NCBI GenBank assembly: GCA_963771275.1
Contig: CAVYSW010000009.1
Location: 96,001-160,000, forward strand
Length of the DNA: 64,000 nucleotides
DNA from: an uncultured Gemmatimonadales bacterium
GTDB taxonomy: Bacteria; Gemmatimonadota; Gemmatimonadetes; Gemmatimonadales; GWC2-71-9
Direction of reading: 5' to 3'
A program made the translations under genes and the position numbers. The notes beneath the pieces were generated by a model, which worked only from the letters and a program-made list of their open reading frames with translations, searched no databases and was not told the origin of the DNA. Positions 3,194-61,650 of the stretch are shown piece after piece. Numbering within the stretch: position 1 is the first letter of the stretch; every line of letters begins with the position of its first letter.

Positions 3194-4747
3194 TCAGGGG
3201 ATGGTGACGACCGCCGCGATGAGCAGGGGAAGCACCGCGAGGATGACGAGCATCGCCAGGAACGCGCCGCCCAGGAGCCAGGTCTCGCGCGGTCGCGGGC
3301 CGGGGTTCCGCAGCACGAGCCGGCCCCCGCTCACGCCGGCGGCGACGCCGCTCGCCACGAGGAAGCCCGCCGGATTCCACCACAGCCAGGACACGCCGGG
3401 CGCGAAGCGGGCGAGCAGCAGGTTCGCGGCGAGCCCCGCGGCCAGACCGCTCACCGCCGCGCCCCCCGTCACGCGCCGTGTCACGACGCCGAGGACGAAC
3501 ACGGCCAACACCGGCCCGTAGAAGGCGGAGCCCACCTGATTCACCAGCTCGAGCACGCCCCCGCCGCTCCGCGCGGCCACCATCCCGGACGCCACCGCGA
3601 ACAGCCCCCAGAGCAACGACGTGAGGCGCCCGACCCACGGGCGCTGACGCTCCGGGCTCATCCCGAAGACGTCCTCGAGCGTCACCGCCGCCAGGGAATT
3701 GAGCGCGGAATCGATCGACGACATCGCGGCGGCCAGGATCGCCGCGAGCAGCAGGCCCCGGAGGCCCTGCGGCAGATAGGTGGTGATGAAGACCGGCACG
3801 AGCGCGTCGAGCGGGCGGCCGCGCATCGCCTCCGCCAGCGCCGGATCGACGGCGAGCAGCCCGGCGAGCAGCAGCCCGAACAGGCAGTACGTCAGCACGA
3901 GCGGGAACCGCAGTAGGCCGTTGAACACGAGCGCCCACCGCGCCTGCGTGTCGTCCCGCGCCGTGAGCAGGCGCTGCGCCTGGCTCTGGTCGCAGCCGTA
4001 GTACGACAGGTACAGGAAGAACCCGCCAATCAGCATCGGCCAGAAGGCGAACGTGTTGCCGTCCCCCAGGCCGAGCGAGCCCATCACCAGCGTATGCGTC
4101 CGCGCGGCGGGGATGGCGCTCAGCGGGTGCAGGCCGATGCGTGCGAGCACGTACAGCGCGGCGACCAGCGTGCCGCCCCAGAGGAGTACCAGCTGCAGGA
4201 CGTCGCTCCAGATGTCGGCGACGATACCGCCGAGCGATGTGTAGGCGACCGACGTGAGCCCGACCGCGAGGAGGGCGGCGTCGATCGACCAGCCGAGGGT
4301 TTCGGCGAGCACCAGGGCCGACGCGTAGAGGATGACCCCGAGCGAGAGGCCGCGCGAGAGGAGGAACGCGCCGGCGAGGGCACGCCGCGTGCCCGGCCCG
4401 AAGCGATGCTCGGCGAACGCGTAGATCGACGACCCCGGGACGGCGCGCAATGTCGGGAGCAGCAGGAACACCGCCGCGAGCATCGCGAGCGGCACGCCCA
4501 GCTCGTACTGCAGCCATACCAGCCCGCCGCCGGCCCGGAGCGCCACGAACGCCGGCGCGCCGACCAGGCTCACCGCACTCGCCTGGTTCGCCAGGATGGA
4601 GGCGGCGAGCGGGGCCGTACCCATGCGGCGGCCCGCGAGGAAGTAGTCGCTGCCGCTCCGCTGCCGCCTGGCGAACGCAAACGACATCCCGAAGATCGCC
4701 GCGACGTAGGCGACCAGCACGGTGAGGTCGATCGCGGAGAGCCGCAC
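3194..4747 (-). CDS. Sodium:solute symporter (SSS family)
   Basis: DYFLAGR, YTSLGGIVADIWSD, DQSQAQRLL, LAAAMSSIDSALNS; about 13 TM segments. Confidence 0.92.
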   Translation of the reverse strand: MRLSAIDLTVLVAYVAAIFGMSFAFARRQRSGSDYFLAGRRMGTAPLAASILANQASAVSLVGAPAFVALRAGGGLVWLQYELGVPLAMLAAVFLLLPTLRAVPGSSIYAFAEHRFGPGTRRALAGAFLLSRGLSLGVILYASALVLAETLGWSIDAALLAVGLTSVAYTSLGGIVADIWSDVLQLVLLWGGTLVAALYVLARIGLHPLSAIPAARTHTLVMGSLGLGDGNTFAFWPMLIGGFFLYLSYYGCDQSQAQRLLTARDDTQARWALVFNGLLRFPLVLTYCLFGLLLAGLLAVDPALAEAMRGRPLDALVPVFITTYLPQGLRGLLLAAILAAAMSSIDSALNSLAAVTLEDVFGMSPERQRPWVGRLTSLLWGLFAVASGMVAARSGGGVLELVNQVGSAFYGPVLAVFVLGVVTRRVTGGAAVSGLAAGLAANLLLARFAPGVSWLWWNPAGFLVASGVAAGVSGGRLVLRNPGPRPRETWLLGGAFLAMLVILAVLPLLIAAVVTIP

Positions 4748-48051: not shown

Positions 48052-49581
48052 CTAGTTCGTGGCGGGCGGTTTCGGCTTCCGCGGCACCATCTCGTCGCGA
48101 TTCGCCAGCGCCCACGCCGTCGCCGCGACGACCACGGCGGCCTGCTCGAGGTCGTCGAGCTGCAGGTGGTCGTACACGTCGAGGAACGTGTGATGCGTCT
48201 GGGCGCTGTAGGCGATCGGATCCTGGATGAAGTTGAAGCCGGGGATCCCCGCGGCATCGAACGCCAGGTGGTCGGTCCCGCCGGTGTTGCCGTGCTTCAC
48301 GGCGACCACGCCGAGGTCGCGGAACGGCCAGAGGATCTGCTCGAAGATCGGGATCGCGGCCTCGTTGGACTGATCCCAGATGCCGCGGATCTTGCCCGTA
48401 CCGTTGTCCACGTTGAGGTAGGCGGAGATCTTTGCGTGCATCTCGGGGTGCTTCGCCACCCAGCCGCGCGAGCCCAGCAGGCCCTGCTCCTCCGCGCTCC
48501 ACAGCCCGATCCGGATCGTGCGGCGCGGCTGGAGGCCGAGCGTCTTGAGGATCCGCATCGCCTCCATCATGACCACGACGCCGGCGGCGTCGTCCGCCGC
48601 GCCCGTGCCGAAATGCCACGAATCGAGGTGCCCACCCAGCATGACGTACTCGTCGGCCTTGGCGCCGCCGGGGAGGTCGGCGAGCGTATTGTACGCCTGG
48701 AGATCGCCGGGGAAGAACCGATTCCTCACGTTGAGCTCCAGGCTCACCGGCACGCCGCGCTCGACGTTGCGATACACCTGCGCATACTGCTCCTGCGAGA
48801 CGATCAGCTCGGGCAGCGGCTCGGGGTTCCCGGGATCCCGGCCCGCGGTGTTGCCGCCGCCGGCGAGGATGCCGTACGCCCGCGACGACGGCACGAGCAC
48901 GGCGAGCACGCCTTCGGCGCGGAACAGCCTGTCGGCCGAATCCCGCACCGCCCGCATCTGGCGGAACCGCCCCATCTGTCGCTCACGGTCCGCCGGGTTG
49001 CGAGCCAGCGTCGGCTCGGGTGGCGGGCCGAGCAGATCGTCCAGCGAGGTGCGCGACGCCGGCGCCTCCCACGCCTCGCGGATCGCGGGCCGGGGTTGGA
49101 GCAGGACCACGGTGCCCTTGAGCTTGCCCCGGTACTGCGCCAGGTCCGCGACGCTGTCCACCTTCACCACGACGGCCGTGCCCGTGACCGTCCCCTTGGT
49201 GCTGCCGGTCCAGCCCGTGGGGATCGCCTGGAGTCCCTGCACGTAGGGGGTGAGCATCCGGCCGCTGTAGGCGACGCGCTCCCACCCCTGCCCGAACTCG
49301 CCCCACGGCTCGACCATCACGTTCACGAAGCCCCAGCCGCGCAGCTTGTCGGCCGTCCAGTCGAGCGCGGTCCGCATGGCCGGCGACCCGGTGAGCCGCG
49401 GCCCGATCACGTCGGTGAGGTAGCCGGCGAGGTCGGGGACCTGCGACCGCTGGAGTCCCTCCTCACGGATCTTCTGGACGACGGCCAGATCGACCCGTTC
49501 CTGGGCCACCTGGGCGCGGGCGGACGGCGCGGCGAAACCGACCGCGCCGCACAGCACGATCGCACGAACGTACCGGTGCAT
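48052..49581 (-). CDS. M28 family metallopeptidase (carboxypeptidase Q-like), secreted
   Basis: IGPRLTGS, GGHLDSW..GTGA.DD..G, WSAEEQGLLGS, TDH, HHT..D. Confidence 0.92.
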   Translation of the reverse strand: MHRYVRAIVLCGAVGFAAPSARAQVAQERVDLAVVQKIREEGLQRSQVPDLAGYLTDVIGPRLTGSPAMRTALDWTADKLRGWGFVNVMVEPWGEFGQGWERVAYSGRMLTPYVQGLQAIPTGWTGSTKGTVTGTAVVVKVDSVADLAQYRGKLKGTVVLLQPRPAIREAWEAPASRTSLDDLLGPPPEPTLARNPADRERQMGRFRQMRAVRDSADRLFRAEGVLAVLVPSSRAYGILAGGGNTAGRDPGNPEPLPELIVSQEQYAQVYRNVERGVPVSLELNVRNRFFPGDLQAYNTLADLPGGAKADEYVMLGGHLDSWHFGTGAADDAAGVVVMMEAMRILKTLGLQPRRTIRIGLWSAEEQGLLGSRGWVAKHPEMHAKISAYLNVDNGTGKIRGIWDQSNEAAIPIFEQILWPFRDLGVVAVKHGNTGGTDHLAFDAAGIPGFNFIQDPIAYSAQTHHTFLDVYDHLQLDDLEQAAVVVAATAWALANRDEMVPRKPKPPATN

Positions 49582-49763
49582 GGTGGGTCCTTTCCCGTAT
49601 CCTGCGGAGCGCTGCGGCGGCGGGCCGGACCGCGGGTCCGGCCGATGACCGCGCGAAACATGTCCTGCCGAGGCACGCGCGGCAACCGCGGGCGGAACGC
49701 ACGCGGGGGCCGGATCGCTCCGGCCCCCGAGCCGCGCCCACCAGCCGCGCGGTGCCTTGCGGT

Positions 49764-51869
49764 TCAGCGCCCGCCGAGCAGCTCGTCGGCGAGCGGGCCC
49801 GCGTTGTACACCTTGCGCAGGCCTTCGATGATGCCGCGCACGTCCACCCACACCGAGCGGCTCACCGCCTCGGTGAAGAGGAAGCGGTTCGGCAGCATCT
49901 CGATGTTCCCGTCGAAAATCAGGCCGACGATCTCGCCGTCACGGTTGACCACGGGACTGCCCGAGTTGCCGCCAATGATGTCGTTCGTGGAGACCGCATC
50001 GAGCGGCGTGGCCAGGTTGAGCTTCTCCCGCGCGTCGATCCAGCGGGACGTGAGGTTCCAGGGTTCCTGGCCCGCGAACCCGGCCCAGCGGTCGAACAGG
50101 CCATAGAACGTCGTGTACGGCGCGGCGTCGGTCCCGTTGTACGGGTAGCGCTTGATCTCGCCGTCCGAGATGCGGAGGCTGAACGTCGCGTCCGGCGCGA
50201 CCGAATTGCCGAACACGGCGAGCAGCGCGCGCGCGACGCGGGTGTCCTGCTGCGCCTCGCGATCCTGCAGGTCCGTCACCTTGGCGCTCATCTCGCGCTC
50301 CAGCGGCTCGATCACGCGGGCCAGCGCGATGAATGGGTCCGTCGAGGCGGCGATCGCCGCGGCGCCGCCGTTCACCAGCCGCCCGGCCTCACCCGCCTGT
50401 GTGAGCGACGTGCCCGCCACCATGGCCTGGGCCGCCGCCTCGGGCGTCCGGTTCCCCAGCACGGCGCGCCGGACGGGATCCGTCGCGGGAAGCCCGGCGG
50501 CCATTTGAGCGAAGTACGCGGCGAGCATCCGCTGCTCGAGCTCCTTGTCCACCGCCTCGAGCCCCCCGAGCGTCCGGTCGAGCATGCGCCGGCTGGCATC
50601 CCGGTAGATGCGCGCCCGCTCGCCGTCGGGCTTCGCCATCTCGATCGGGTAGCGCACGATGACGCCCGCCGCCGCCATCAGGCTGGAGCCGAAGGCGTTG
50701 AAGCCGTAGAACCGCCGCTTCACGTCCAGGGCGGCGAGATCACGGCGCATCTGCGCGATCAGGTCCCACGCGGAGCCATACTCCCCCTTGAGCTTGGGAT
50801 CCGCGTCCACCCTGGCGCGGAAGCTCTTCTCCCAGGCCTGCTTCTGCGCCATGAGCTTGGGGTCCAGCAGACCGGACTGGTAGCCCTTGGTGGCCTTCTG
50901 GCTGTTCTCCAGGCCGAACACCGTGTTGCGGAACGCCTTGGCGCGCTCGGGATCGGCGTTGCCGAGCTCGTGCAGCACCGCGATCTGCCGCGCGTACCCG
51001 TCGAGGGTCGCCGGGTACTGCACGTCGCGCAGGTACTCGAGCTGCGCCATCGTGTTCAGCCGTCCGGTCGACCCGGGGTTCCCGACCACGAAGACGAGGT
51101 CGTTCTCCTTCGAGCCGTTCGCGCTCCACCGGAAGTAGTCGGTGTGCACCGGCTGGCCGTTGTCGTAGGCGCGGTAGATGCTCAGGTCCAGGTCGTGGCG
51201 GGGGTACGTGAAGTTGTCCGGGTCGCCGCCGAAAAAGGCCGCCTGGCCCTCGGGCGCGAACACCAGCCGGACGTCGGTATAGCGCCGGAACGTGTAGAGC
51301 TTGAACTGCCCGCCGCGGTACATCGAGACGACCTGACAGTAGAGCCCCAGGCCGGTCGCGGCGCAGCGGTCCTGGATCGCGGTGATCGCCGTGGCGCGCA
51401 GATCGGCCGCCCGCGTGGGCGCGGCGGTCGCGGGCACCGCGGCGTTCACGCTGTCGGTGACGTCCCGGATCGACAACAGCTGGTCGAGCGTGAACCCCTG
51501 ACACGGCCGTTCCTCGTCGCGCGTCCGCGCGTAGAAGCCGTCCGACAGCAGGTCCTCGCCCTCGCGCGTCACGCCCTCGATGCAGCGCCGCGCGCAGTGG
51601 TGATTGGTCAGCACCAGTCCGTCCGCCGACACGAACGAGGCCGTGCAGCCGGGCTGGCGCAAGGCCGACATCCGGACGTGATCGAGCCACTGCGCCGACG
51701 GGCGGAAGTCGTAGCGCTTGGCCCAGTAGTCGAGCGGCGGCACGTCGAACGTCCACATCTTGCCGGTTTCAAGACCTGGATACTCGGTGCGCTGCTGCTG
51801 CGCCGCCACCGGGCGCGCCAGGACGAGCAGGAGCAGGACGCCGAAGAGCCGGGTTGGGAGACGCTTCAT
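49764..51869 (-). CDS. S46 family dipeptidyl peptidase
   Basis: GCTASFVS..GLVLTNHHC, FGGDPDNFTYPR, PDATFSLR, DIIGGNSGSP, FDGN. Confidence 0.93.
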   Translation of the reverse strand: MKRLPTRLFGVLLLLVLARPVAAQQQRTEYPGLETGKMWTFDVPPLDYWAKRYDFRPSAQWLDHVRMSALRQPGCTASFVSADGLVLTNHHCARRCIEGVTREGEDLLSDGFYARTRDEERPCQGFTLDQLLSIRDVTDSVNAAVPATAAPTRAADLRATAITAIQDRCAATGLGLYCQVVSMYRGGQFKLYTFRRYTDVRLVFAPEGQAAFFGGDPDNFTYPRHDLDLSIYRAYDNGQPVHTDYFRWSANGSKENDLVFVVGNPGSTGRLNTMAQLEYLRDVQYPATLDGYARQIAVLHELGNADPERAKAFRNTVFGLENSQKATKGYQSGLLDPKLMAQKQAWEKSFRARVDADPKLKGEYGSAWDLIAQMRRDLAALDVKRRFYGFNAFGSSLMAAAGVIVRYPIEMAKPDGERARIYRDASRRMLDRTLGGLEAVDKELEQRMLAAYFAQMAAGLPATDPVRRAVLGNRTPEAAAQAMVAGTSLTQAGEAGRLVNGGAAAIAASTDPFIALARVIEPLEREMSAKVTDLQDREAQQDTRVARALLAVFGNSVAPDATFSLRISDGEIKRYPYNGTDAAPYTTFYGLFDRWAGFAGQEPWNLTSRWIDAREKLNLATPLDAVSTNDIIGGNSGSPVVNRDGEIVGLIFDGNIEMLPNRFLFTEAVSRSVWVDVRGIIEGLRKVYNAGPLADELLGGR

Positions 51870-52035: not shown

Positions 52036-52053
52036 CGGGACCCGGCTGCTGTG

Positions 52054-52765
52054 CGACGTCCACGGGCGGATCACACACGTCTGTCTCGCGCTGCCGACAT
52101 ACCAGTCCGAGACCGTGCCCCGCCTGCTCGTGGACGAGCGCCACGTGGTGCTGGGCCGCTCGGTCGGCACGGGACCGCCGGCGCGTACCGCGGCCCGGAC
52201 CCTGCGGCGCCTGTTCGCGCCCCCCGGTGGCCGGGCAGCGCCCGCACTGTTGCGCGTGCCGGCCCGCTCGCGCCAGCCCAGCTCCCACCAGGACCTCTAC
52301 CTCACGCTCGCGGCACAGCCCGGGGGCCGCCAGTCGCGGCCTCGAGCGCGTGGCCCGGACGATGGCGGCCGCGGGCTACGAGGTCGTGCGCCTGCCCTAC
52401 GCCACGACGCGGCTGCCAGAGGCGCGCAGGGACAGCGTGATCACGTACAACAACGCAATGGTCGAGGTGCGGCCGGGGGCGGGCGGGCGGACCGCGCGGC
52501 GCGTGATTCTCGCGCGGTGCGGTACGGACGGCGGGGCGGACATGGCGGCGTTGGACGACGCCGCCGGTGCGGTGTGGCGCAGCTGGGGTTCGACGTGTGC
52601 TTCGCGGAAGGACCGTTCACCTGGCTCGGCATCTTCGAGGGCAGCGTCCACTGCCTCACCAAGGTGCTCACGCGGGCCGAACCCGCTACAGCAGCACGTC
52701 GTTCCGGAGCAGCTTCCGGACCCCCCACCACACGGCACCCAGCAGATTCGAGCGGCGGACGGTGA
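52054..52765 (+). pseudogene. Frameshifted pentein-superfamily (agmatine/peptidyl-arginine deiminase-like) remnant
   Basis: Joining two frames gives HQDLYLT ... GYEVVRLP ... ITYNNA ... WRQLGFDV ... GSVHCLTK, the HxD and GxxHCxT catalytic pattern; frameshifts near 52335 and 52580; no clear start. Confidence 0.55.
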
Positions 52766-54743
52766 TGCGCGCCGGTCCGACGCCCCCGGGGCGGATCCCG
52801 GCCGCCCCGGCGGGGACCCGCACCCGCACCTCGAGGCCCGAGTCCGCCGCGCTTGCCGCCGCGACGGCCGTCACCGGCGCGTCGAGCCAGCGCCGCTCCC
52901 CCACCTCGGACAGGATCGCCGCACGCTGCCCAGCGCGCACCAGGGTGGCGCCCGCCCGCTCGAGCTGGATGCGGAGCTCCAGCGAATCGAGCGCCATCAG
53001 CCGCACCACGGGCTCGCCGGCGTCGTACCGGCGCCCGATCTGCTCCTCGATGCGCGGGCTCACCACGGTCGCGGCCGTGACCGCCCGCAAGGTGAGCGCC
53101 GCGATGCGGTCGGCCAGCACGTCCCGCCGTGCCGTGGCCTCGCCGAGCGCGCGGGCCGTCTGCTCCGCCTGATCGTACCGCCCCCGCGCCTGCGCCACCC
53201 GTACCTCCGCGGCAAGCGAGTCGGCCTGGCGGGCCGCCACGACGGACTCCCCCTCGAGCGCGAAGCTCCGCAGCCGGGCGACCGCCGCGCCGGCGGCCAC
53301 GCGCCCGCTCTCGCCCACGAATACCTGCTCGAGCACCGCGTCGTCGGGCGCGGCCAGGATCGTCTCGCGGGCCGGGCCGGCCGCGTAGCGCCCGGCGACG
53401 CGGATCGGCCAGGGCGTGAGGATCAGCGTCGCCAGGAGCGCCGCGGCGACCCCCGCGGTCCATCGCAGCCCGCGCCGCTCCCGCCACAGCGCGCGGTGCT
53501 CCCGCACCGTCATGACGAGGGCGCGGGCCCACTCGCGCACGCCGCTGCGGAGCAGCGCGCCGATCAGCAGCAGCGCGGCCAGTCCGCCGAGCGCGCCCAT
53601 CGTCCGATTGGCCCAGCCGAACACCGCGCCGGCGATGACGAACAGGATGGTCCCGATATACGCCAGGGACAGCGCGCCGTACACGAAGAACGCGCGCCGC
53701 TCGTAGGCGTCCGCCGGCGGCTCGGGCGTGTTGAGGCGCAGCACGTGCCGCTTGAGCGCCCAGGCGACGTGCCCCAGCGCCCGCTGTCGCAGGTTGGGGA
53801 TCTCGAGATAGTCGCTCAGCGCATAGTAGCCGTCGAGCGGGATCAGCGGGTTCGCGTTCATCAGCACCGTCGTGGCGCCGCCGATCAGCAGCGCCGCGAA
53901 CGCAATGCGCGACACGAGGCTCCCGGGATCCACCAGCACCCAGACGATGGCGGCGAGGCCGGCGATCACCAGCTGGATCCACGACCCCGCCGCCGTCACC
54001 CACAGCCGCTTGCGCAGCTCCGGAAAGGTCCAGGCATCATTCACGTTGCAGTAGAAGGCGGGCTCGAAGTAGATCAGCATCGCGCCCATCTCGTAGACCT
54101 GGCCGCCGAAGTACTTGCAGGTGAAGCCGTGGCCCAGCTCGTGGATCGCGATCACCACCATCCCGGTGCCCCAGAACACGGCGATGTTGGCGGGCGTGAA
54201 GAACTCGAGCGAGTACATCGCGCGCATACCCGCGAAGACCTGGCTGGCGTGGCCGACGAAGATGAGCCCGTAGACCACGAACAGCACGACCGACAGCACG
54301 AGGAACGGCGTCGAGAAGAACCACCGGAGGCGCGGCAGCCAGCGCGTGAAGAACCCGTCGGGGTCCCCCACGGAGAACCGCATGCGCAGCAGGCTGCCCT
54401 GATAGTGCGTGTTGCGTGCCCGCCGTGTGCGCTCGGCGCGCAGCCGCTCGAGCTCGAGCACCGATTTCTCGGCGAGCGACCGCTCCAGCAGCCCGAGCTG
54501 CCGCAGCCGCCGCGCGAACCCCTCCACCGCCGGCTGGGCGATCGGCATGCCCTGCGCGCGCAGGGCCGCCGCGACGTCGCCGCAGGTCGCGTCGCCGGTG
54601 AACTGCTGCATCACCAGCACCTCGAGCGGCTTGAACCGGAAGTACTTCCGGCTCACCGGGTCCTTCACGATGTAGGTGATCGCGCCGCGGTAGCGCTGCT
54701 CGACCAGGGACAGGTCGGACCGAAAGGCCGGGCGGGGCGGCAC
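52686..54743 (-). CDS. Fusion: PqqD/RRE-like N-terminal domain + M50 (site-2) intramembrane metalloprotease + HlyD-like adaptor domain
   Basis: N-terminal YIVKDP..RKYFRF..F.RRL..LGLLE; HELGH (HExxH); NANPLIPLDGYY (NxxPxxxLDG); C-terminal lipoyl/hairpin/barrel pattern; GTG start next to the upstream stop. Confidence 0.85.
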   Translation of the reverse strand: MPPRPAFRSDLSLVEQRYRGAITYIVKDPVSRKYFRFKPLEVLVMQQFTGDATCGDVAAALRAQGMPIAQPAVEGFARRLRQLGLLERSLAEKSVLELERLRAERTRRARNTHYQGSLLRMRFSVGDPDGFFTRWLPRLRWFFSTPFLVLSVVLFVVYGLIFVGHASQVFAGMRAMYSLEFFTPANIAVFWGTGMVVIAIHELGHGFTCKYFGGQVYEMGAMLIYFEPAFYCNVNDAWTFPELRKRLWVTAAGSWIQLVIAGLAAIVWVLVDPGSLVSRIAFAALLIGGATTVLMNANPLIPLDGYYALSDYLEIPNLRQRALGHVAWALKRHVLRLNTPEPPADAYERRAFFVYGALSLAYIGTILFVIAGAVFGWANRTMGALGGLAALLLIGALLRSGVREWARALVMTVREHRALWRERRGLRWTAGVAAALLATLILTPWPIRVAGRYAAGPARETILAAPDDAVLEQVFVGESGRVAAGAAVARLRSFALEGESVVAARQADSLAAEVRVAQARGRYDQAEQTARALGEATARRDVLADRIAALTLRAVTAATVVSPRIEEQIGRRYDAGEPVVRLMALDSLELRIQLERAGATLVRAGQRAAILSEVGERRWLDAPVTAVAAASAADSGLEVRVRVPAGAAGIRPGGVGPARITVRRSNLLGAVWWGVRKLLRNDVLL

Positions 54744-54744
54744 G

Positions 54745-55707
54745 TCAGGGTCGGACGACGCGCTCGCCGGGGGCGAGCCCCTGCACCACCTCCACCATCC
54801 CACCCGCCAGGGTCGCGCCGAGCGTGACGCGCCGCAGCACGGGCCGGCCGTCCTCCCACACGAGCACCCGGTCGCCGTCGCGCACCGCCGCCGCCGGCAC
54901 GGCGAGCACGCGCCCCGGCTGGGCGCCGAGTCGCACTTCCACGCCCGCGCCCGGCCGCAGACCGGCGCGCGCGTCGAGCTGCAGCACGATCTCCCGCGTG
55001 CCGCTCGCCGGGTCGATCGCGGGAGACGCCCGGATCACCCGCGCCGCCACCTTGCTGCCGTCGAGCGCACGCACCTCCGCCGCGGCCCCCGTCGTCATGC
55101 CCTGCGCCGCCTGCTCCGGCACCTGCACCGCCACGAGGAGCGGCCCCATGGCGCTCACGCGGAGCAGCGTGTCGCCTTCCTGCACGAGCCGGCCGGGCCG
55201 CACCTGGCGCTGCGTCACCATCCCGTCGAACGGCGCCAGGACGCGGGTGAATTCGAACGCCCGGCGGGCGCGGCGCTGCGCGACGTCCGCCAGCCGGTAC
55301 GCGAGCGCCGCGCGCTCGGAATCCGCCGGCGACACCAGGTGGCCGTCGGCCAGCGCCTCGAGCCGCTCGAGGGTCCGTCGGGCGTTGGCGACGTTGGCCT
55401 CGGCCTCATCGACCGCGATCACCTGATCGGTGCTCTCGAGCCGCACGAGCGTGTCACCCGCCCGCACGCGGCTCCCCACGTCCACGTAGACCGATTCCAC
55501 CGCGCCGGTGGCGCGCGCGTGCACGACCGCATCGTGCTCCACGTACAGTTGCCCGCGCAGCGTGACCGGCAGCGTCACGCTGATGCTGTCCACCGCGACC
55601 AGGTTCTCCGGCGAGCCCGTCGCCGCGGGGAGCACCGTTTGGGCCCGCTCGCCGCAGGCGAACGCCCCGAGCAGCAGTCCCGGCAGGGCTGCGCGACGTC
55701 CGATCAT
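54745..55707 (-). CDS. Periplasmic adaptor / membrane fusion protein (HlyD/RND MFP), lipoprotein
   Basis: Lipobox AFAC; G.VESVYVDVGSRVRAGD, APFDG.V, IDPASGT, VEVVQGL.PGE.VV; ATGA overlap with the upstream gene. Confidence 0.9.
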   Translation of the reverse strand: MIGRRAALPGLLLGAFACGERAQTVLPAATGSPENLVAVDSISVTLPVTLRGQLYVEHDAVVHARATGAVESVYVDVGSRVRAGDTLVRLESTDQVIAVDEAEANVANARRTLERLEALADGHLVSPADSERAALAYRLADVAQRRARRAFEFTRVLAPFDGMVTQRQVRPGRLVQEGDTLLRVSAMGPLLVAVQVPEQAAQGMTTGAAAEVRALDGSKVAARVIRASPAIDPASGTREIVLQLDARAGLRPGAGVEVRLGAQPGRVLAVPAAAVRDGDRVLVWEDGRPVLRRVTLGATLAGGMVEVVQGLAPGERVVRP

Positions 55708-57644
55708 GGCCACATCCTCCACCACAGCAGGCGGAGCCAGCGCACCGGCCCGCGCAGCACCCGCCCGAGCGTCGAGGCGGGCGCGGTGAGCACGCGCGCG
55801 TGGGCGACCATGCCCGGTCGCAGCGCGCCCTCCGGGTTGGGGACGACCGCCCGCACCGCGAACGCGACGTCGGGGGTCGCGTCGAGCGGCAGCGCCCCGA
55901 GGAACGTCACCCGGCCGTAGAACGTGCGTTGCGGCAGCGCGTCCACGCGCAGCCGGACCTCCTGCCCCAGGGCGACCCGCTCGACGTCGCGCTGGCTCAC
56001 CCCGAGATCGAGCTCGAGCGAATCGGTGCGCCCGATCACGAGCAACGAGTCGCCGGCCTCGGGCCGTCGCCCGATCAGCTCCTGCGGGCGCGCCGTCAGC
56101 ACCACGCCGGGCACCAGGCTCCGCACCGTCGCCGCGGCCACCTGCTCGTCGAGCAGGGCGCGCTCACGCCGCAGCGACGCGGCCCGGCCGCGCTGCAGCC
56201 GCTCGGTGGCGGCGTCGCCATGCGCCGCGGCCGCGGCGGCGAGCCGGTCGGCCACGTCCGCTTCCGCCCCCGTCGCTTCCGCAGCCCCGCGCAGCTCGAC
56301 GGTGCGCAGCTGCACGACGGGGTCGCCGCGCCGCACCATCTGCCCCTCGGCCACCAGCACCCGCTCCACCGAGCCGTCCACCAGGGGACGCACCACCACC
56401 CGATCCAGCGCGCGGAACGTCGGCGCGACCCCGACGACCCGGAGCGGCCAGCGAATCAGCGTGAGCGCGGCGAGCGCGAGGGCGGTCGCGGCCACGTACA
56501 CCTGGAGCCGGCGCCGCGGCAGGGCGAACACCGCGCGCTTGGCGCGGGCCACCTTGCCAAGGACGTCCACCAGCGGCACCTGCGCATACAGCTCGGCGTT
56601 GCGGGCGGCCACGGTCGTCTGGTTGGCCAGCACGCCGGCCAGCTCCCGCTGCGTCGCGCTCAGGAAGTCCGGCCGCTCGGCCTCGAAGATCAGCACCCCC
56701 AGCGTCCCCTGCTCGTCCCTGAGCGGCAGGTACAGCCCGCTCCGCGCGGCGTCCGCCGTGAGCCCGTCGCCGAACGCGCTCACGAACGCCCGGGCGTCGT
56801 CGGCCGTGGGGGCCCCGCCATCGGTGAGGTAGAACGGCTCGCCGCGCTCCACCGCCCACGTGCCCCGGCGTGCCAGCCGGCGCACCGCGTCGTCCTTGGG
56901 GTCCACCGCTTCCTGCCCCGCGATCGCCCGGATGTCGAGCCGGCCGTCGTGGTACAGACCGACCGCGCCGCGGTCGAACGGCAGGGCCTGCGTCGCCAGG
57001 TTCACCACCGAGCCCAGCACGCGGTCGAGGTCGAGCGTGGCGGTGATCTCCCGCGAGATCTCGAGCAACAGCGCCAGGTTGCGCGCGCGCTTCTCCGCCT
57101 GGTGCAACTGCGCGTTGCGCAGCGCCACGGCCGCGCTCTCGGCGAGCCCCTCCAGCAGCAGGCGGTCGTTCTCGTCGAAGATGCGCACGCCGCGCACCTT
57201 GTTGTTGACCTGGATCGAGCCGACGGTCTCCCCCTTGGCGACCATCGGCGCGGCCATCACCGTCGTCGTGATCATCGTGCTCGAGCGATCGAGCCGTGCC
57301 TGGAACCGCTCGTCCCGCATGGCGTCGGCCACGATCGTGCTGCGCTGCTTCCGCGCGACGTCGCCGACGAACCCGGTGCCGATCGGCGTCTCGCTGCCCA
57401 CGAGCTTGGCGCTCCCGGGCCCGAGCGCCAGCCGGCACGTGAGCACGTCGCCCTCGGCGATCCAGATGGATCCGCCCTGGGCGCCCAGGGCGTCGAGCAC
57501 GGTGTTGAACACCCGGGGCAACAGCTCGTCGAAGTCCAGCGAGCTGTTGAATTCCTGGCCGATGGCGCGCAGCAGGCGAAGTCGCTCGATTTCAGCGGTC
57601 AGATCGCCCAGGGCGTCCGTCGGGGGGAGGGGAGCCTCGTCCAT
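55704..57644 (-). CDS. GAF-GAF-TM-HlyD fusion protein
   Basis: Two GAF domains (SSLDFDELL..NK..FDENDR; ATLDLDRVL..LPL..GVL), TM helix, then adaptor motifs DGSVERVLVAEGQ.V..GD and LRPGM. Confidence 0.87.
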   Translation of the reverse strand: MDEAPLPPTDALGDLTAEIERLRLLRAIGQEFNSSLDFDELLPRVFNTVLDALGAQGGSIWIAEGDVLTCRLALGPGSAKLVGSETPIGTGFVGDVARKQRSTIVADAMRDERFQARLDRSSTMITTTVMAAPMVAKGETVGSIQVNNKVRGVRIFDENDRLLLEGLAESAAVALRNAQLHQAEKRARNLALLLEISREITATLDLDRVLGSVVNLATQALPFDRGAVGLYHDGRLDIRAIAGQEAVDPKDDAVRRLARRGTWAVERGEPFYLTDGGAPTADDARAFVSAFGDGLTADAARSGLYLPLRDEQGTLGVLIFEAERPDFLSATQRELAGVLANQTTVAARNAELYAQVPLVDVLGKVARAKRAVFALPRRRLQVYVAATALALAALTLIRWPLRVVGVAPTFRALDRVVVRPLVDGSVERVLVAEGQMVRRGDPVVQLRTVELRGAAEATGAEADVADRLAAAAAAHGDAATERLQRGRAASLRRERALLDEQVAAATVRSLVPGVVLTARPQELIGRRPEAGDSLLVIGRTDSLELDLGVSQRDVERVALGQEVRLRVDALPQRTFYGRVTFLGALPLDATPDVAFAVRAVVPNPEGALRPGMVAHARVLTAPASTLGRVLRGPVRWLRLLWWRMWP

Positions 57645-57733
57645 CGCCGTTCAAGTGGTCGCCGGGTGGGGGCGGTGTCAAGCACCGCAGGTGACAGCCC
57701 GACGCCTCGCCCGTCCGCAGGCCCCCCAATAGA

Positions 57734-57766
57734 CGAATCCCCGCGGCGTGCGGCCGCGGGGATTCG
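57734..57766 (-). terminator. 14-bp perfect hairpin downstream of precursor gene 3
   Basis: CGAATCCCCGCGGC-gtgcg-GCCGCGGGGATTCG; only a weak U-tract (TCTATT) on the minus strand. Confidence 0.65.
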
Positions 57767-57789
57767 GATCCGGAGAGCGGGAGAGCCGC

Positions 57790-57945
57790 CTACTCCTGGA
57801 GGCGGATCAGCTTGCTCGGCGCGATGCGCTCTTCGAGCTCCTCCACCGACAGCTCCAGCACCTCGGCCTGCTTCCCCGTCGCCTGCTTGATCGCCTTCTT
57901 CTGATCCGCCGTCAGCGCCAGGCGGAACGTCCCCTTCTTCTCCAT
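57790..57945 (-). CDS. Putative precursor peptide 3 (51 aa): MEKKGTFRLALTADQKKAIKQATGKQAEVLELSVEELEERIAP-SKLIRLQE
   Basis: GAGGAGG RBS; paralog of the two peptides at 58882 and 59071. Confidence 0.88.
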   Translation of the reverse strand: MEKKGTFRLALTADQKKAIKQATGKQAEVLELSVEELEERIAPSKLIRLQE

Positions 57946-58002
57946 GACCCCTCCTCGGCAAGTGGCTCCACCACGGTGACCGTCCACAATATCGGGAGCC
58001 GC

Positions 58003-58040
58003 CGTGAACGGGCCGTGAAACGACCTCGCCGGACCGTGAA
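58003..58040 (-). promoter_or_regulatory. Three TTCACG direct repeats (SARP-box-like) upstream of precursor 3
   Basis: CGTGAA on the plus strand at 58003, 58014 and 58035 (spacing 11 and 21); candidate -10 GATATT 9 nt after the last hexamer. Confidence 0.7.
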
Positions 58041-58053
58041 ACACCGCCCCACG

Positions 58054-58800
58054 TCACCCCTCGGCGTCCAGGAAGTGCTCGAGGCCCAGCTCGGCAAGCA
58101 GCTGCGGGGCCTCGGTGACCACATGCCAGGTGCGCTCCTGCTCGTTGGCCGCCTCGACGCAGGCATCGAGGTGGCCCCGCTCGTAGGGCGGGAAGTCGCC
58201 GGCCCGCTCCTCCGGCTCCGCCGAGCGCACGGTCAGGGCCCGGGTGGGCCGCGCCGGATCCGCCCACAGCGCGGCACGCCCGCCCGGCGTGATCGAGCAG
58301 CCCGCGGCGTACCCGAACTCGATGCGACCGGTTCCCACCGTGTACGCGATGCCGAATGGGAAGGTGCGGCAGATCGTCGGCCGATGCTCCCAGATGGTGC
58401 AGCGGCGCTCCGCCGGATCGTAGTGCAGACAATGCCCATCCACCGAGCGCATCCGCGGCTGATCGCGCGACGACACCCGGAACGCCCCGCGGACGCTCGC
58501 CAGCAGGCCCGCCGCCCGCAGCCGCACCAGATCCAGGAGGTTGAGGCGGATGCCGGCGTCCGCCGCCCAGCCGGTGCAGCACACCTTGGCGCAGCGGTGC
58601 GGCTGGCAGCGAAACACCCCGTCCCGCCAGGCGCGCGTCACGGTGCGCTCGTCGTCCACCGGCGCCAGCGCCGGATGGGGCGGGACTCCGGCGCGGGACT
58701 CTACCCACCGGATGTACTCGTCGGGAGTGGTCGGGTCGGTCACTTGACGCCTTCCGGGGATGGCCGGCCGGAGCCGCGGGTCGATTGGTGAGCCGCTCAT
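58054..58800 (-). CDS. YkgJ-family (CxxCxxCC) Cys-cluster, putative Fe-S/Zn protein
   Basis: FRCQPHRCAKVCC, CLHYD....CTIWEHRPTICRTFPF and a further Cys. Confidence 0.82.
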   Translation of the reverse strand: MSGSPIDPRLRPAIPGRRQVTDPTTPDEYIRWVESRAGVPPHPALAPVDDERTVTRAWRDGVFRCQPHRCAKVCCTGWAADAGIRLNLLDLVRLRAAGLLASVRGAFRVSSRDQPRMRSVDGHCLHYDPAERRCTIWEHRPTICRTFPFGIAYTVGTGRIEFGYAAGCSITPGGRAALWADPARPTRALTVRSAEPEERAGDFPPYERGHLDACVEAANEQERTWHVVTEAPQLLAELGLEHFLDAEG

Positions 58801-58818
58801 GAACGCCTGAACAACACA

Positions 58819-58863
58819 CCGGACGGTGCCGCCGCACAGCCTGCCCGCTGCGGCACCGTCCGG
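58819..58863 (-). terminator. 14-bp stem hairpin between precursor 2 and the YkgJ gene
   Basis: CCGGACGGTGCCGC (58819-58832) pairs with GCGGCACCGTCCGG (58850-58863). Confidence 0.6.
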
Positions 58864-58881
58864 ACGCGGCGGTGGCTGCGA

Positions 58882-59037
58882 CTACTTCAGGAACATCCTC
58901 GCGGGCGCGATCCGCTCTTCGAGCTCCTCGATCTTCAGCTCGAGCGCCTCGGCGTCCCTCCCGGTCGCGGTGCGGATCGCCTTCTTCTGCTCTTCCGTCA
59001 ACGTCAGGCGGAAGGTCCCTCCCTTTTTCGCCGGCAT
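58882..59037 (-). CDS. Putative precursor peptide 2 (51 aa): MPAKKGGTFRLTLTEEQKKAIRTATGRDAEALELKIEELEERIAP-ARMFLK
   Basis: Translated by hand (not in the ORF track); GGAGG RBS; near-duplicate of precursor 1. Confidence 0.88.
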   Translation of the reverse strand: MPAKKGGTFRLTLTEEQKKAIRTATGRDAEALELKIEELEERIAPARMFLK

Positions 59038-59070
59038 GGTGCTTCCTCCATGTGCTGGGGGTACGTGGGC

Positions 59071-59229
59071 TTAGAACTTGTCGAACAGCTTCGCGGGCGC
59101 GATCCGATCTTCCAGTTCCTCGATCTTCAGCTCGAGCGCCTCGGCGTCCTTCCCGGTCGCGCTGCGGATCGCCTTCTTCTGCTCTTCCGTCAGCGCCAGG
59201 CGGAAGGTGCCTCCCTTCTTCTGCGCCAT
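59071..59229 (-). CDS. Putative precursor peptide 1 (52 aa): MAQKKGGTFRLALTEEQKKAIRSATGKDAEALELKIEELEDRIAP-AKLFDKF
   Basis: GAGGAGG RBS; paralogous to precursors 2 and 3. Confidence 0.88.
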   Translation of the reverse strand: MAQKKGGTFRLALTEEQKKAIRSATGKDAEALELKIEELEDRIAPAKLFDKF

Positions 59230-59284
59230 CCATCCTCCTCGTGGACATGGGCCCCTCGGGAACGGTCGCAATGTGTTCCGCAAG

Positions 59285-59323
59285 CGTGAAACCGGCGTGA
59301 ACGACTGCGCCGCGGCGCGTGAA
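59285..59323 (-). promoter_or_regulatory. Three TTCACG direct repeats (SARP-box-like) upstream of precursor 1
   Basis: CGTGAA on the plus strand at 59285, 59296 and 59318 (spacing 11 and 22); candidate -10 CACATT 9 nt after the last hexamer. Confidence 0.72.
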
Positions 59324-59415
59324 ATACGCCAGGCGGATCGACCGGCCGGGCGACACTTGCCGGGCGGCCGGGCCGGGGTAGGTTAGACGGTGACCCACCC
59401 TGCGGGGCAACGCTG

Positions 59416-61650
59416 GTGCGCCTCACCCTGTTCGGGACCCTTCGGCTGGCGGAGCCTGGTGGCGCCGACCAGGAGCCCCGCCTGGGATCTAAGCCCATGG
59501 CGCTGCTGGCGTTCCTCGCCCTGGAGCCGGGGCTTCACCCGCGCGACGAGCTGGCGACCCTGTTCTGGTCCGACGCCCCCACGTCATCGGCGCGGGCGTC
59601 GTTGCGCCAGGCGCTGCGCGCGGTGCGATCCGCCGTCGGCGACCGGCTCGAGACGGACAATCGGTCCGTCCGCCTGCTCCCCGGACTCACCTGCGATGTC
59701 GCGGAGTTCCGCCGGTCGGTGGAGGAGAACCCGTCCGCCGCCCTGGAGTACGACGTCCCCCGGTTCCTCGCCGGCGTCTCCGTGCGGGGCGCGCCGGCCT
59801 TCGAGGAGTGGGCGGACACCACCAGAGCCGCCCTGCTCCGGCAGTACGCCAAGGCGCTGCGCAAGGCCGGCCGCCAGGCGTTGCGGCTTTCGCGATGGGC
59901 TGAAGGCGCTGCACTGGGCAGGCGATGGCTGAGCATCGAGCCGCTCTCCGCCGAGGCGGCGATCCTCACGGCGGAAGCGCATTTCATGGCGGGAGAGAAC
60001 GGGACCGCGCTGGCGGAGCTCACCGAGCACATGCGCCGGGTGCGCGTGGAGACGGGCGCGGAGCCGGACGGCTCGCTGCGCGCCTTGGCTGAGCGAATCG
60101 CAAAGGCCGGGCGCCACACCGGACGCCGTTCTTCCGAGACGGGGCTGGAACCCGCTTTCGAGACCTCCCTGGTCGGCCGGGAGACCGAGTGGCGCGCGGT
60201 GATGGACGCCTGGTCCGCCGTGACGCGCGGGGAAACGCGTGTCGTGCTGTTCGAGGGGGATCTCGGCATGGGCAAGACACGCCTGGCGGAGGAAGCGCTC
60301 CGCTGGGTCCGCGCGGCCGGCGCCACCGTACTTGATGGCCGGGGATACGATGCCGCCGCCGGGATCGCCTACGCGCCGATCGCCGACGCGCTGAATGACG
60401 CGCTCGACGCCCCGGGCCTGCCGGCGGTGTCCCCCGAATGGCTGGCCGAGGTGGCCCGGTTGCACCCCGGGATTCGCGACCGGTTTCCCGGCCTGCCCGC
60501 CCTGGCCGAGCCGGTCGAAACCGACCGCCGCTGGCGGTTGTTCGAAGCGGTGGCCCAGGTCATTCTCGGATTGGCCGCGGAGCGCCCCACGGCGGTCGCG
60601 ATCGATGATCTGGAGCTGTGCGACGCCGATTCGTGCGCCCTGCTGCAGTTCCTCGCGCAACGGGTCGACGCCGCCCCCGTGCTCTTCCTGTTCACCTCCA
60701 GTCCGGGCGAGGTGGAGCGCACGGCACCGACCGGCCGGCTGTGCCGCACGTTGCGCACCGCGGAGCGGGCGACCGTCGTGTCGCTCGGCGCGCTCGACGC
60801 CGGCGCCGTGTGGCGGCTGGTGCGCCAACTGGCCCGGATTACCGAGCCGGAGGGCGGCCGCCGGCTGGCGGAGCGGCTCCATGCCCTCACGGAGGGCAAC
60901 CCGTTCCACGTCGTCGAGCTGCTGAAGAGCCTGTTCGGGCAGGGGCTGCTGACCGTGGACGCCACCACCGGAGCGTGGCGCGTCGCGCCCGGCGCGACGG
61001 ACGACCTGGGCGGGGCCATCCCCCTGCCGCGGTCGGTTCAGGAAGCCGTGCAGGCCCGCTGCGCGGGGCTTCCCTACGAGCTGCGCGACCTGCTGGCGGT
61101 GGTCGCGGTGGCGGGCCGCCGCGCCTCCACCCATCTGATCTCCCACGTCCTCGGCATGTCACGCCTGCGGGCGGCGGCGCTGGCTGATTCGCTGGTGGAC
61201 CGCAGGCTGCTGGCGCAGGAAGGCGGCGGCTACCGCTGCGCGCACCCCGTGATTCAGGACGTGGTGCGCGCCGGCCTCACCCCCGCCCGCAGCCGGGAGA
61301 TGCACCGCGCGATCGCCTACGCCCTCGAGGAGCTGGCCGACCCGGCGGACGCGGGCGATGTCGCGCGCCACGCGGAGCAGGGCGGCGAGCGCGGGCTCGC
61401 CTACCAGGCCGCGCTGCGTACGGGGGCGGCCGCCGCGGCGCAGCTCGTTCCCGACGACGCCCTGGCCTGGTTCGAGTTCGCCGCCCGCGTCGCCCCGACG
61501 GCGGCAGAGGCCGAGGAGGCAAACCGCCGCGCCGCCGCAGTGGCGGGCGCGGACGCCGCCAAGCCGGCGCGGGCGCGGCGCAGGACGGGCACGCCGGCGC
61601 ACGGCCTGACGCGCCGCGACCTGGACCTCGGAGTCGGCCGGCGGGACTGA
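59416..61650 (+). CDS. SARP/AfsR-like transcriptional regulator (wHTH + BTAD + AAA/STAND ATPase)
   Basis: LTLFG, ALLAFLAL, RDELATLFW, ARASLRQAL, FEEW, LVGRETE, Walker A GDLGMGKT, IDDL...D..S, TEGNPF. Confidence 0.9.
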   Translation: MRLTLFGTLRLAEPGGADQEPRLGSKPMALLAFLALEPGLHPRDELATLFWSDAPTSSARASLRQALRAVRSAVGDRLETDNRSVRLLPGLTCDVAEFRRSVEENPSAALEYDVPRFLAGVSVRGAPAFEEWADTTRAALLRQYAKALRKAGRQALRLSRWAEGAALGRRWLSIEPLSAEAAILTAEAHFMAGENGTALAELTEHMRRVRVETGAEPDGSLRALAERIAKAGRHTGRRSSETGLEPAFETSLVGRETEWRAVMDAWSAVTRGETRVVLFEGDLGMGKTRLAEEALRWVRAAGATVLDGRGYDAAAGIAYAPIADALNDALDAPGLPAVSPEWLAEVARLHPGIRDRFPGLPALAEPVETDRRWRLFEAVAQVILGLAAERPTAVAIDDLELCDADSCALLQFLAQRVDAAPVLFLFTSSPGEVERTAPTGRLCRTLRTAERATVVSLGALDAGAVWRLVRQLARITEPEGGRRLAERLHALTEGNPFHVVELLKSLFGQGLLTVDATTGAWRVAPGATDDLGGAIPLPRSVQEAVQARCAGLPYELRDLLAVVAVAGRRASTHLISHVLGMSRLRAAALADSLVDRRLLAQEGGGYRCAHPVIQDVVRAGLTPARSREMHRAIAYALEELADPADAGDVARHAEQGGERGLAYQAALRTGAAAAAQLVPDDALAWFEFAARVAPTAAEAEEANRRAAAVAGADAAKPARARRRTGTPAHGLTRRDLDLGVGRRD

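Follow-up and report, generated by a model that had tools for sequence, protein, structure and literature searches.

Introduction

Proteins of the YkgJ type (Pfam PF03692) are widespread and almost all of them are uncharacterized; to our knowledge, two have a known function, and both are unusual N-methyltransferases. The first of these, FliB of Salmonella, is a flagellin lysine N-methyltransferase (PMC8598068). As far as the published account goes, its C-x4-C-x3-CC motif binds a [4Fe-4S] cluster that is needed for the SAM-dependent lysine methylation of flagellin (Wang et al., PMC8598068), and the protein has eight conserved cysteines in total (PMC8598068). The second, DpdM, is a phage DUF3109 protein characterized as a dPreQ1 N-methyltransferase and linked in its description to an 'E. 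coli homolog YkgJ' (PMC10516641). In phage DNA, its methylation target is the aminomethyl group of dPreQ1, and the same description gives it a CxxxxCxxC-C block, three cysteines spaced ten apart and a distal cysteine, from which two four-cysteine metal sites around a tunnel were proposed (PMC10516641).

In terms of gene layout, daptide and epipeptide systems (NF041824, NF058609) resemble the locus described here in that leader-bearing small peptides are encoded beside an HExxH intramembrane protease. These systems also encode tailoring enzymes beside their precursors, a position that can be compared with that of the YkgJ-type protein at our locus. The locus lies in a 64,000-nucleotide stretch of DNA from an uncultured Gemmatimonadales bacterium (hereafter the window). 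In our literature search, we found neither a link between ribosomal peptides and proteins of the YkgJ type nor a description of the cassette in which the present protein is embedded.

Organization of the peptide cassette

The cassette spans positions 52686-61650 of the window and contains the features listed below.

59416..61650, plus strand: BTAD-AAA_16 regulator, divergent, a core cassette gene (domain matches; related cassettes)
59071..59229, minus strand: pre1, leader plus tail AKLFDKF (leader alignment; leader HMM)
58882..59037, minus strand: pre2, leader plus tail ARMFLK, directly upstream of YkgJ and its proposed substrate (leader alignment; leader HMM, E 1.9e-31)
58819..58863, no strand assigned: hairpin with 17-bp arms in the gap between pre2 and YkgJ (hairpin search)
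58054..58743, minus strand: YkgJ-type CxxCxxCC protein, most likely extent (PF03692; homologue starts; dN/dS ~0.2)
57790..57945, minus strand: pre3, leader plus tail SKLIRLQE, downstream of YkgJ (leader alignment; leader HMM)
57734..57766, no strand assigned: perfect 14-bp hairpin in the gap between pre3 and GAF-HlyD (hairpin search)
55704..57644, minus strand: GAF-GAF-HlyD adaptor, a core cassette gene (Pfam GAF and HlyD_D23; kept in related cassettes)
54745..55725, minus strand: HlyD-type adaptor, a core cassette gene (Pfam; related cassettes)
52686..54803, minus strand: fusion of an M50 (HExxH) intramembrane protease with a HlyD-like domain (Peptidase_M50)

On the minus strand, pre1 is followed in turn by pre2, hairpin, YkgJ, pre3, hairpin, GAF-GAF-HlyD, HlyD and M50-HlyD. 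The initial annotation had likewise placed YkgJ directly downstream of pre1 and pre2. The three precursors share a leader of ~45 residues that ends in ...EELEERIAP and is followed by a tail of 6-8 residues. As had also been stated, Lys occurs in all three tails; those of pre1 and pre2 contain an aromatic residue and that of pre3 contains none. The M50-HlyD protease is the likely leader peptidase of the cassette. Daptides require genes for a decarboxylase, an aminotransferase and a methyltransferase as well as a C-terminal Thr, and none of these was seen at this locus. Scored on the daptide_HExxH model (NF041824), the M50-HlyD protease stays at 190 bits, short of the required 300, which makes it a relative of that family and not a member.

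Both hairpins are GC-rich and strong, lack a T-run and stand right after pre2 and pre3. No terminator-like site was found on the minus strand within 57500-59500, and the hairpin between pre2 and YkgJ aligns with GC-rich inverted repeats in the related loci L029 and L030. The two hairpins may be attenuators or RNA-stabilizing elements.

The description of YkgJ as the only intact enzyme-like gene besides the protease is accurate inside the cassette but not beyond it, where genes for an S46 peptidase (49764-51869, minus strand) and an M28 peptidase (48052-49851, minus strand) lie downstream on the same strand. These two genes are probably unrelated to the peptide system, as they are syntenic in the close relatives L029, L014 and L016 only and are absent at other cassettes. 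A further observation concerns 52040-52687 of the window (plus strand), where a remnant of the gene for a 365-aa protein is left, with frameshifts and an internal deletion. In tblastn it appears in four pieces, which in window order lie in frames 2, 2, 3 and 2, and query residues 34-182 are lost. An intact copy is found beside a tandem pair of orphan leader peptides in G001 and G002, which belong to the same genus (L014 10374-11468, minus strand; L016 8583-9680, plus strand). The 365-aa protein has no Pfam match, and its C-terminal GGIRCM is presumably reminiscent of arginine-deiminase/amidinotransferase-type enzymes. The remnant may represent a second, decayed peptide-linked enzyme.

The YkgJ gene and its start

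In our ORF check of the window, 58054-58800 (minus strand) is an open frame of 248 aa with an ATG at 58800. Its identification as a YkgJ/CxxCxxCC protein is borne out by a PF03692 match at E 1.1e-9 (39.2 bits, cut-off 23), a family that Pfam labels 'putative zinc- or iron-chelating domain'. A search of 5.8 billion protein clusters returned nine homologues that are 64-85% identical, and PF03692 is also matched by 9/9 members of the homologue alignment. All nine start 19 codons inside the 248-aa frame, at a position that corresponds to GTG 58743 in the window. Because the homologues start there, GGAAGG precedes this GTG and locus L030 has an ATG at the aligned position, the true gene is most likely 58054-58743 (minus strand), encoding 229 aa from a GTG start that lies 138 nt past pre2.

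With respect to the reality of the gene, the dN/dS of YkgJ is 0.20-0.21 in comparisons with L029 and L030, and that of the neighboring GAF-HlyD gene is 0.19. YkgJ is thus under purifying selection and is constrained to the degree seen for the cassette genes. Parts of it are also covered by contig pieces from four public runs in four studies; the first run is possibly the sample from which the present DNA was obtained. A 1187-nt piece spans 57768-58954 and a second spans 58610-58982, so that the junctions with the flanking peptide genes are included. These pieces attest to the DNA only, and the gene is no assembly artefact.

Cysteine pattern and relation to FliB and DpdM

The two cysteine motifs reported initially, C-x4-C-x3-CC and C..C..RP..C, were both found in YkgJ. 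Numbered along the 248-aa frame, they are C65-x4-C70-x3-C74C75 and C124..C134..RP..C144; the former is contained in the N-terminal block CQPHRCAKVCC and the latter in the block CLHYDPAERRCTIWEHRPTIC. In the numbering of the 229-aa protein, the cysteines are C46, C51, C55, C56, C105, C115, C125, C149 and C195. Eight of these are invariant in homologues of 30-86% identity, and the ninth, C51 (C70 of the longer frame), is kept within the close subfamily. The first 45 residues are specific to the subfamily, and so is the C-terminal part, comprising roughly the last 80.

The C-x4-C-x3-CC spacing of YkgJ is identical to that of the published FliB motif (PMC8598068). Both proteins are cytoplasmic with a substrate that is exported afterwards, the peptide substrate of YkgJ being putative. 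The kinship with FliB that had been claimed therefore stands as regards motif spacing; sequence similarity beyond the cysteine motif was not detected, and the likeness is one of cysteine pattern, judged by the published description of FliB and not by direct alignment. The two proteins also differ in setting, with YkgJ adjoined by peptide, adaptor and protease genes and a flagellar context absent, and in substrate, which would be a peptide of ~50 aa for YkgJ but is flagellin for FliB.

The resemblance to DpdM, likewise a pattern match to the published description only, extends to the cysteine block, the C-x9-C-x9-C series and the distal cysteine. All eight metal-ligand cysteines of the catalytic tunnel proposed for DpdM, as that description gives them, are kept in YkgJ. 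In contrast, DUF3109 (PF11307) is touched by one of nine YkgJ members at E 0.16, no deazaguanine genes were found near YkgJ, and the substrate of DpdM is DNA. When YkgJ was searched with tblastn against 50,697 phage records, two weak matches resulted (E 0.6-0.8), and the NCBIfam models returned no family at E up to 10 for any of the nine YkgJ members. Overall, YkgJ is best explained as a member of the CxxCxxCC (YkgJ/FliB/DpdM) superfamily that resides in the cytoplasm and binds metal or an Fe-S cluster.

The AlphaFold2 model of YkgJ was of moderate quality (pLDDT 65.8, pTM 0.67), with low confidence at the loops of the cysteine sites. It gave no match to the PDB at E <= 0.001 in Foldseek and no chain at Z >= 2 in VIA-align wide, while a PDB sequence profile search produced one chance-level match (E 0.34) and matches in the ESM Atlas were to PF03692 clusters only. 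No SAM-binding fold was recognizable by Pfam or by the PDB fold search with this moderate model. For an RRE/PqqD-like docking domain, there was no Pfam PqqD match at E up to 1 and no match in the fold search, again with a model of pLDDT 65.8. The predicted complex of YkgJ with precursor scored 0.01 against a mark of 0.32, a value that counts neither for nor against an interaction.

Distribution of YkgJ relative to the peptide cassette

The conserved unit of the cassette consists of the regulator, one or more leader peptides, GAF-HlyD, HlyD and M50-HlyD. In a leader alignment search, leader peptides were found in 20 of 60 relatives, and the YkgJ protein was found in none of the same 60 at E <= 1e-5. 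Across a sample of 400 genomes from the phylum, the leader is present in 52 at E <= 1e-6 (including the unpublished genome G100), and the YkgJ subfamily profile gave an orthologue-level match in 0/400. The profile did yield 14 weak, domain-level matches in this sample (best E 9.6e-7), and the genomes concerned have zero overlap with the 52 that are leader-positive; one of the 14, G018, carries a weak leader match (E 1.6e-4) on the same contig as its YkgJ-like match, ~73 kb away. In a second sample of 400 genomes, drawn from the family, the YkgJ subfamily occurs in one.

The picture was the same at the level of individual loci. A total of 80 leader-peptide loci in other genomes were examined, the first 20 by tblastn with YkgJ and the other 60 with a generic CxxCxxCC HMM built from HMMER matches among 1.84 billion representatives. 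This HMM finds the unrelated paralogue in the present genome at E 8.5e-18 and all of its positive controls (5/5). A CxxCxxCC gene was found in none of the 80 loci. GAF-HlyD and M50-HlyD are both present in 42 of the 80 (38/60 and 4/20), and in eight further loci a contig end truncates the cassette; no cassette gene is present in 20 of the 60. In the same-genus genomes G001 and G002, a single peptide is followed directly by GAF-HlyD. The Gemmatimonadota peptide/M50/HlyD cassette is normally without a tailoring enzyme, and for this reason the short peptides that it usually yields are probably unmodified.

These counts overturn the proposal in the initial annotation that YkgJ is the maturase of the precursors. 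It had named co-occurrence with precursor homologues as a check and the absence of YkgJ from homologous clusters as evidence against the proposal, and YkgJ is in fact absent from nearly all such clusters.

Adjacency of YkgJ to leader-peptide genes

Searched with HMMER against 1.84 billion representatives, YkgJ gave 112 matches at E <= 0.001. Seven of these are near full length (P0004, P0010 and P0011-P0015), and the others cover the cysteine domain only; P0012-P0015 are 30-37% identical to YkgJ. A leader-family peptide lies directly upstream of the YkgJ subfamily member, on the same strand, in four of four visible contexts. These contexts are the window and loci L029, L030 and L045, with P0012-P0015 not among them, and as three of the four are close kin (83-100% identical), they amount to two independent observations. 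In L030, where YkgJ is 83% identical, the order is peptide, YkgJ and then directly GAF-HlyD. L029 (85% identical) opens with a partial peptide, ...RIAPMIYLK, at 2-64, followed by the YkgJ match from 193, and beyond YkgJ it has two more peptides and then the cassette.

The remaining context, L045, is contig C248 of G437, which belongs to another genus. Its YkgJ is 43% identical, with a match that runs from 4291 and is cut by the contig end, and the peptide ORF before it, at 4016-4237, matches the leader HMM at E 1.9e-13. On its other side, this pair is flanked by an ORF of 942 aa that looks like a Ser/Thr kinase. The cassette of G437 is on a separate contig (C218) with two other peptides and no YkgJ. 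Since pair and cassette are on different contigs in this genome, YkgJ travels with the peptide gene and not with the export genes.

Adjacency of this kind was not found for CxxCxxCC genes at large. In a locus search with a narrower YkgJ alignment, 79 of 80 loci held generic CxxCxxCC genes with no leader peptide or cassette nearby, the exception being L045. No further member of the YkgJ subfamily was found among 40 relatives of G437. The second PF03692 gene of the present genome (C3:1385954) is on another contig from, or >400 kb away from, every leader match, and PF03692 genes are present in 10 of 14 control genomes. The link between YkgJ and the precursors thus fails for a general maturase and survives in a narrower form, that of a rare subfamily with a peptide upstream in each visible context. 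Taken together, the sequence comparisons support a YkgJ subfamily that would be tied to one peptide subtype as a rare, lineage-restricted 'peptide + YkgJ' module.

Peptide tails and the wider leader family

The tails of the four directly upstream peptides are ARMFLK, AKAFYK, MIYLK and MAISLKFA, all of which have an aromatic-Lys motif. Specifically, an aromatic residue within one residue of Lys occurs in 6 of 8 peptides from YkgJ-bearing loci versus 1 of 26 elsewhere, a difference that the Fisher p of 1e-4 makes look too strong, as the motif was defined post hoc on sequences that share ancestry. Most leader-family peptides have Lys or Arg at the second position past the invariant ...IAP, hence this basic residue is not specific to YkgJ; the protease may recognize it when cleaving. 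The shortest tails in the family have 3-4 residues (MKI, VKLA, MKMM).

Several leader-family genes lie apart from any cassette or diverge from the common form. The present genome (G000) has further orphan copies on contigs other than that of the cassette, among them two leader-peptide genes far from cassette genes, C10:168529-168663 (plus strand) and C3:983729-983872 (minus strand), with the tails SKLIRS and ARVPTAGGPIPIPYPNTG, respectively. A divergent branch of the family, with a longer tail that ends in VWECLNPYP, is found in three genomes (G000:C9:49943-50131, minus strand; L021 7524-7790; L026 9933-10133). Large Ser/Thr kinases are encoded beside orphan leader peptides in L045 (104-2932, minus strand), L167 (4093-6945, minus strand), L172 (2998-5844, plus strand) and L165 (7223-10204, minus strand); two of the four have TPR repeats and one an FGE-sulfatase domain, and the L045 kinase was judged by eye. 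In L185, the neighbor of the orphan peptide is a cyclase-AAA-TPR STAND protein. The kinase neighbors hint at a signaling role for leader peptides. The suggestion that orphan leader peptides usually lie beside enzymes was rejected, their neighbors being heterogeneous.

Proposed role of YkgJ

The reading that we tentatively favor, at somewhat under an even chance, is that YkgJ is a lineage-restricted accessory tailoring enzyme that would act on the aromatic-Lys peptide subtype, possibly as a lysine methylase. In terms of mechanism, YkgJ and the leader peptide upstream of it, with a short tail in which an aromatic residue stands next to Lys, would form a two-gene module. This module would have been inserted into the peptide cassette in this lineage, the cassette working without it in almost all other genomes. 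YkgJ would modify the aromatic-Lys peptide subtype prior to leader removal, after which the M50 protease would cut off the leader and the adaptors would export the tail. By analogy with FliB and DpdM, the chemistry would most likely be N-methylation of an amine, namely that of the Lys side chain. Lysine methylation is the most economical guess, because both characterized relatives methylate a primary amine, and it is nevertheless improbable as a specific proposal. In favor of this reading stand the adjacency to peptide genes, also away from the cassette, the confinement of the subfamily to such settings, the tail motif, the cysteine pattern, the purifying selection and the lack of a terminator-like site. 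The sequences show family membership, conservation, rarity and the adjacency, whereas we infer the action on the peptide, the target residue and the chemistry alike.

Several observations count against an accessory tailoring role. The absence of YkgJ from almost every cassette makes it dispensable for the basic system, and the RRE/PqqD docking domain by which precursor might be engaged was not detected in it. The hairpin at 58819-58863 could be a terminator that uncouples pre2 and YkgJ. Finally, the similarity to FliB and DpdM is confined to the cysteine pattern, and YkgJ falls in no NCBIfam family.

A broader version of the accessory reading, possible though doubtful, is that YkgJ represents a new class of peptide-tailoring enzyme that would direct FliB-like metal- or Fe-S- and SAM-dependent chemistry to the aromatic-Lys C-terminus of a leader-guided short peptide, which would afterwards be cleaved by the M50 protease and exported. 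Candidate modifications would be N-epsilon-methylation or a radical-type change such as a Lys-aromatic link.

Alternative explanations

YkgJ might instead be a passenger, that is, an Fe-S or Zn protein with an unrelated cellular role that is carried along with a mobile or duplicating peptide gene. A cassette that is complete without YkgJ in 42 loci would be expected of a passenger, and so would membership of a broad family whose roles are mostly unknown and which the majority of our control genomes contain; many unrelated genes also adjoin orphan leader peptides, and the docking domain that went unfound in YkgJ fits here as well. We nonetheless regard this explanation as unlikely, given that the adjacency persists at 43% identity and outside the cassette, that the YkgJ subfamily was found nowhere else and that the constraint on YkgJ equals that on the cassette genes. 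Moreover, chance adjacency is put at ~1 in 1000 by a rough estimate that assumes ~150 nt, 3-6 peptide genes and a genome of 3-4 Mb.

Quite unlikely, in our judgment, is a non-catalytic partnership, with YkgJ binding either the aromatic-Lys peptide or the leader. It would then act as a chaperone, protect the cell from its own peptide, or regulate release by sensing redox state or metal. Such a partner would account for the adjacency as well as a tailoring enzyme does; the N-terminal 45 and C-terminal ~80 residues that set the subfamily apart could provide a binding surface, and the lack of a recognizable SAM-binding fold would fit it. However, FliB and DpdM, the two characterized relatives, are both enzymes according to their published descriptions, and YkgJ has kept every one of the eight cysteines described as metal ligands in the DpdM tunnel. 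Least tenable of all, and close to inconceivable, is YkgJ as the core maturase of the whole peptide family: its standing as the sole enzyme-like cassette gene besides the protease within the window is outweighed by CxxCxxCC genes in none of the 80 leader loci of other genomes, by peptides in 52 of 400 phylum genomes that yielded no orthologue and by the direct succession of peptide and GAF-HlyD in G001 and G002, a distribution that refutes this reading.

Significance

Should YkgJ be an accessory tailoring enzyme, this would, as far as our literature searches show, be the first peptide-tailoring role reported for the YkgJ family, and 'peptide + YkgJ' would constitute a portable module. The proposed enzyme-substrate pair is a simple one, in which a protein of 229 aa would act on a peptide of 51 aa. 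It could shed light on the function of the YkgJ family, and ribosomal peptide chemistry could gain a new type of modification.
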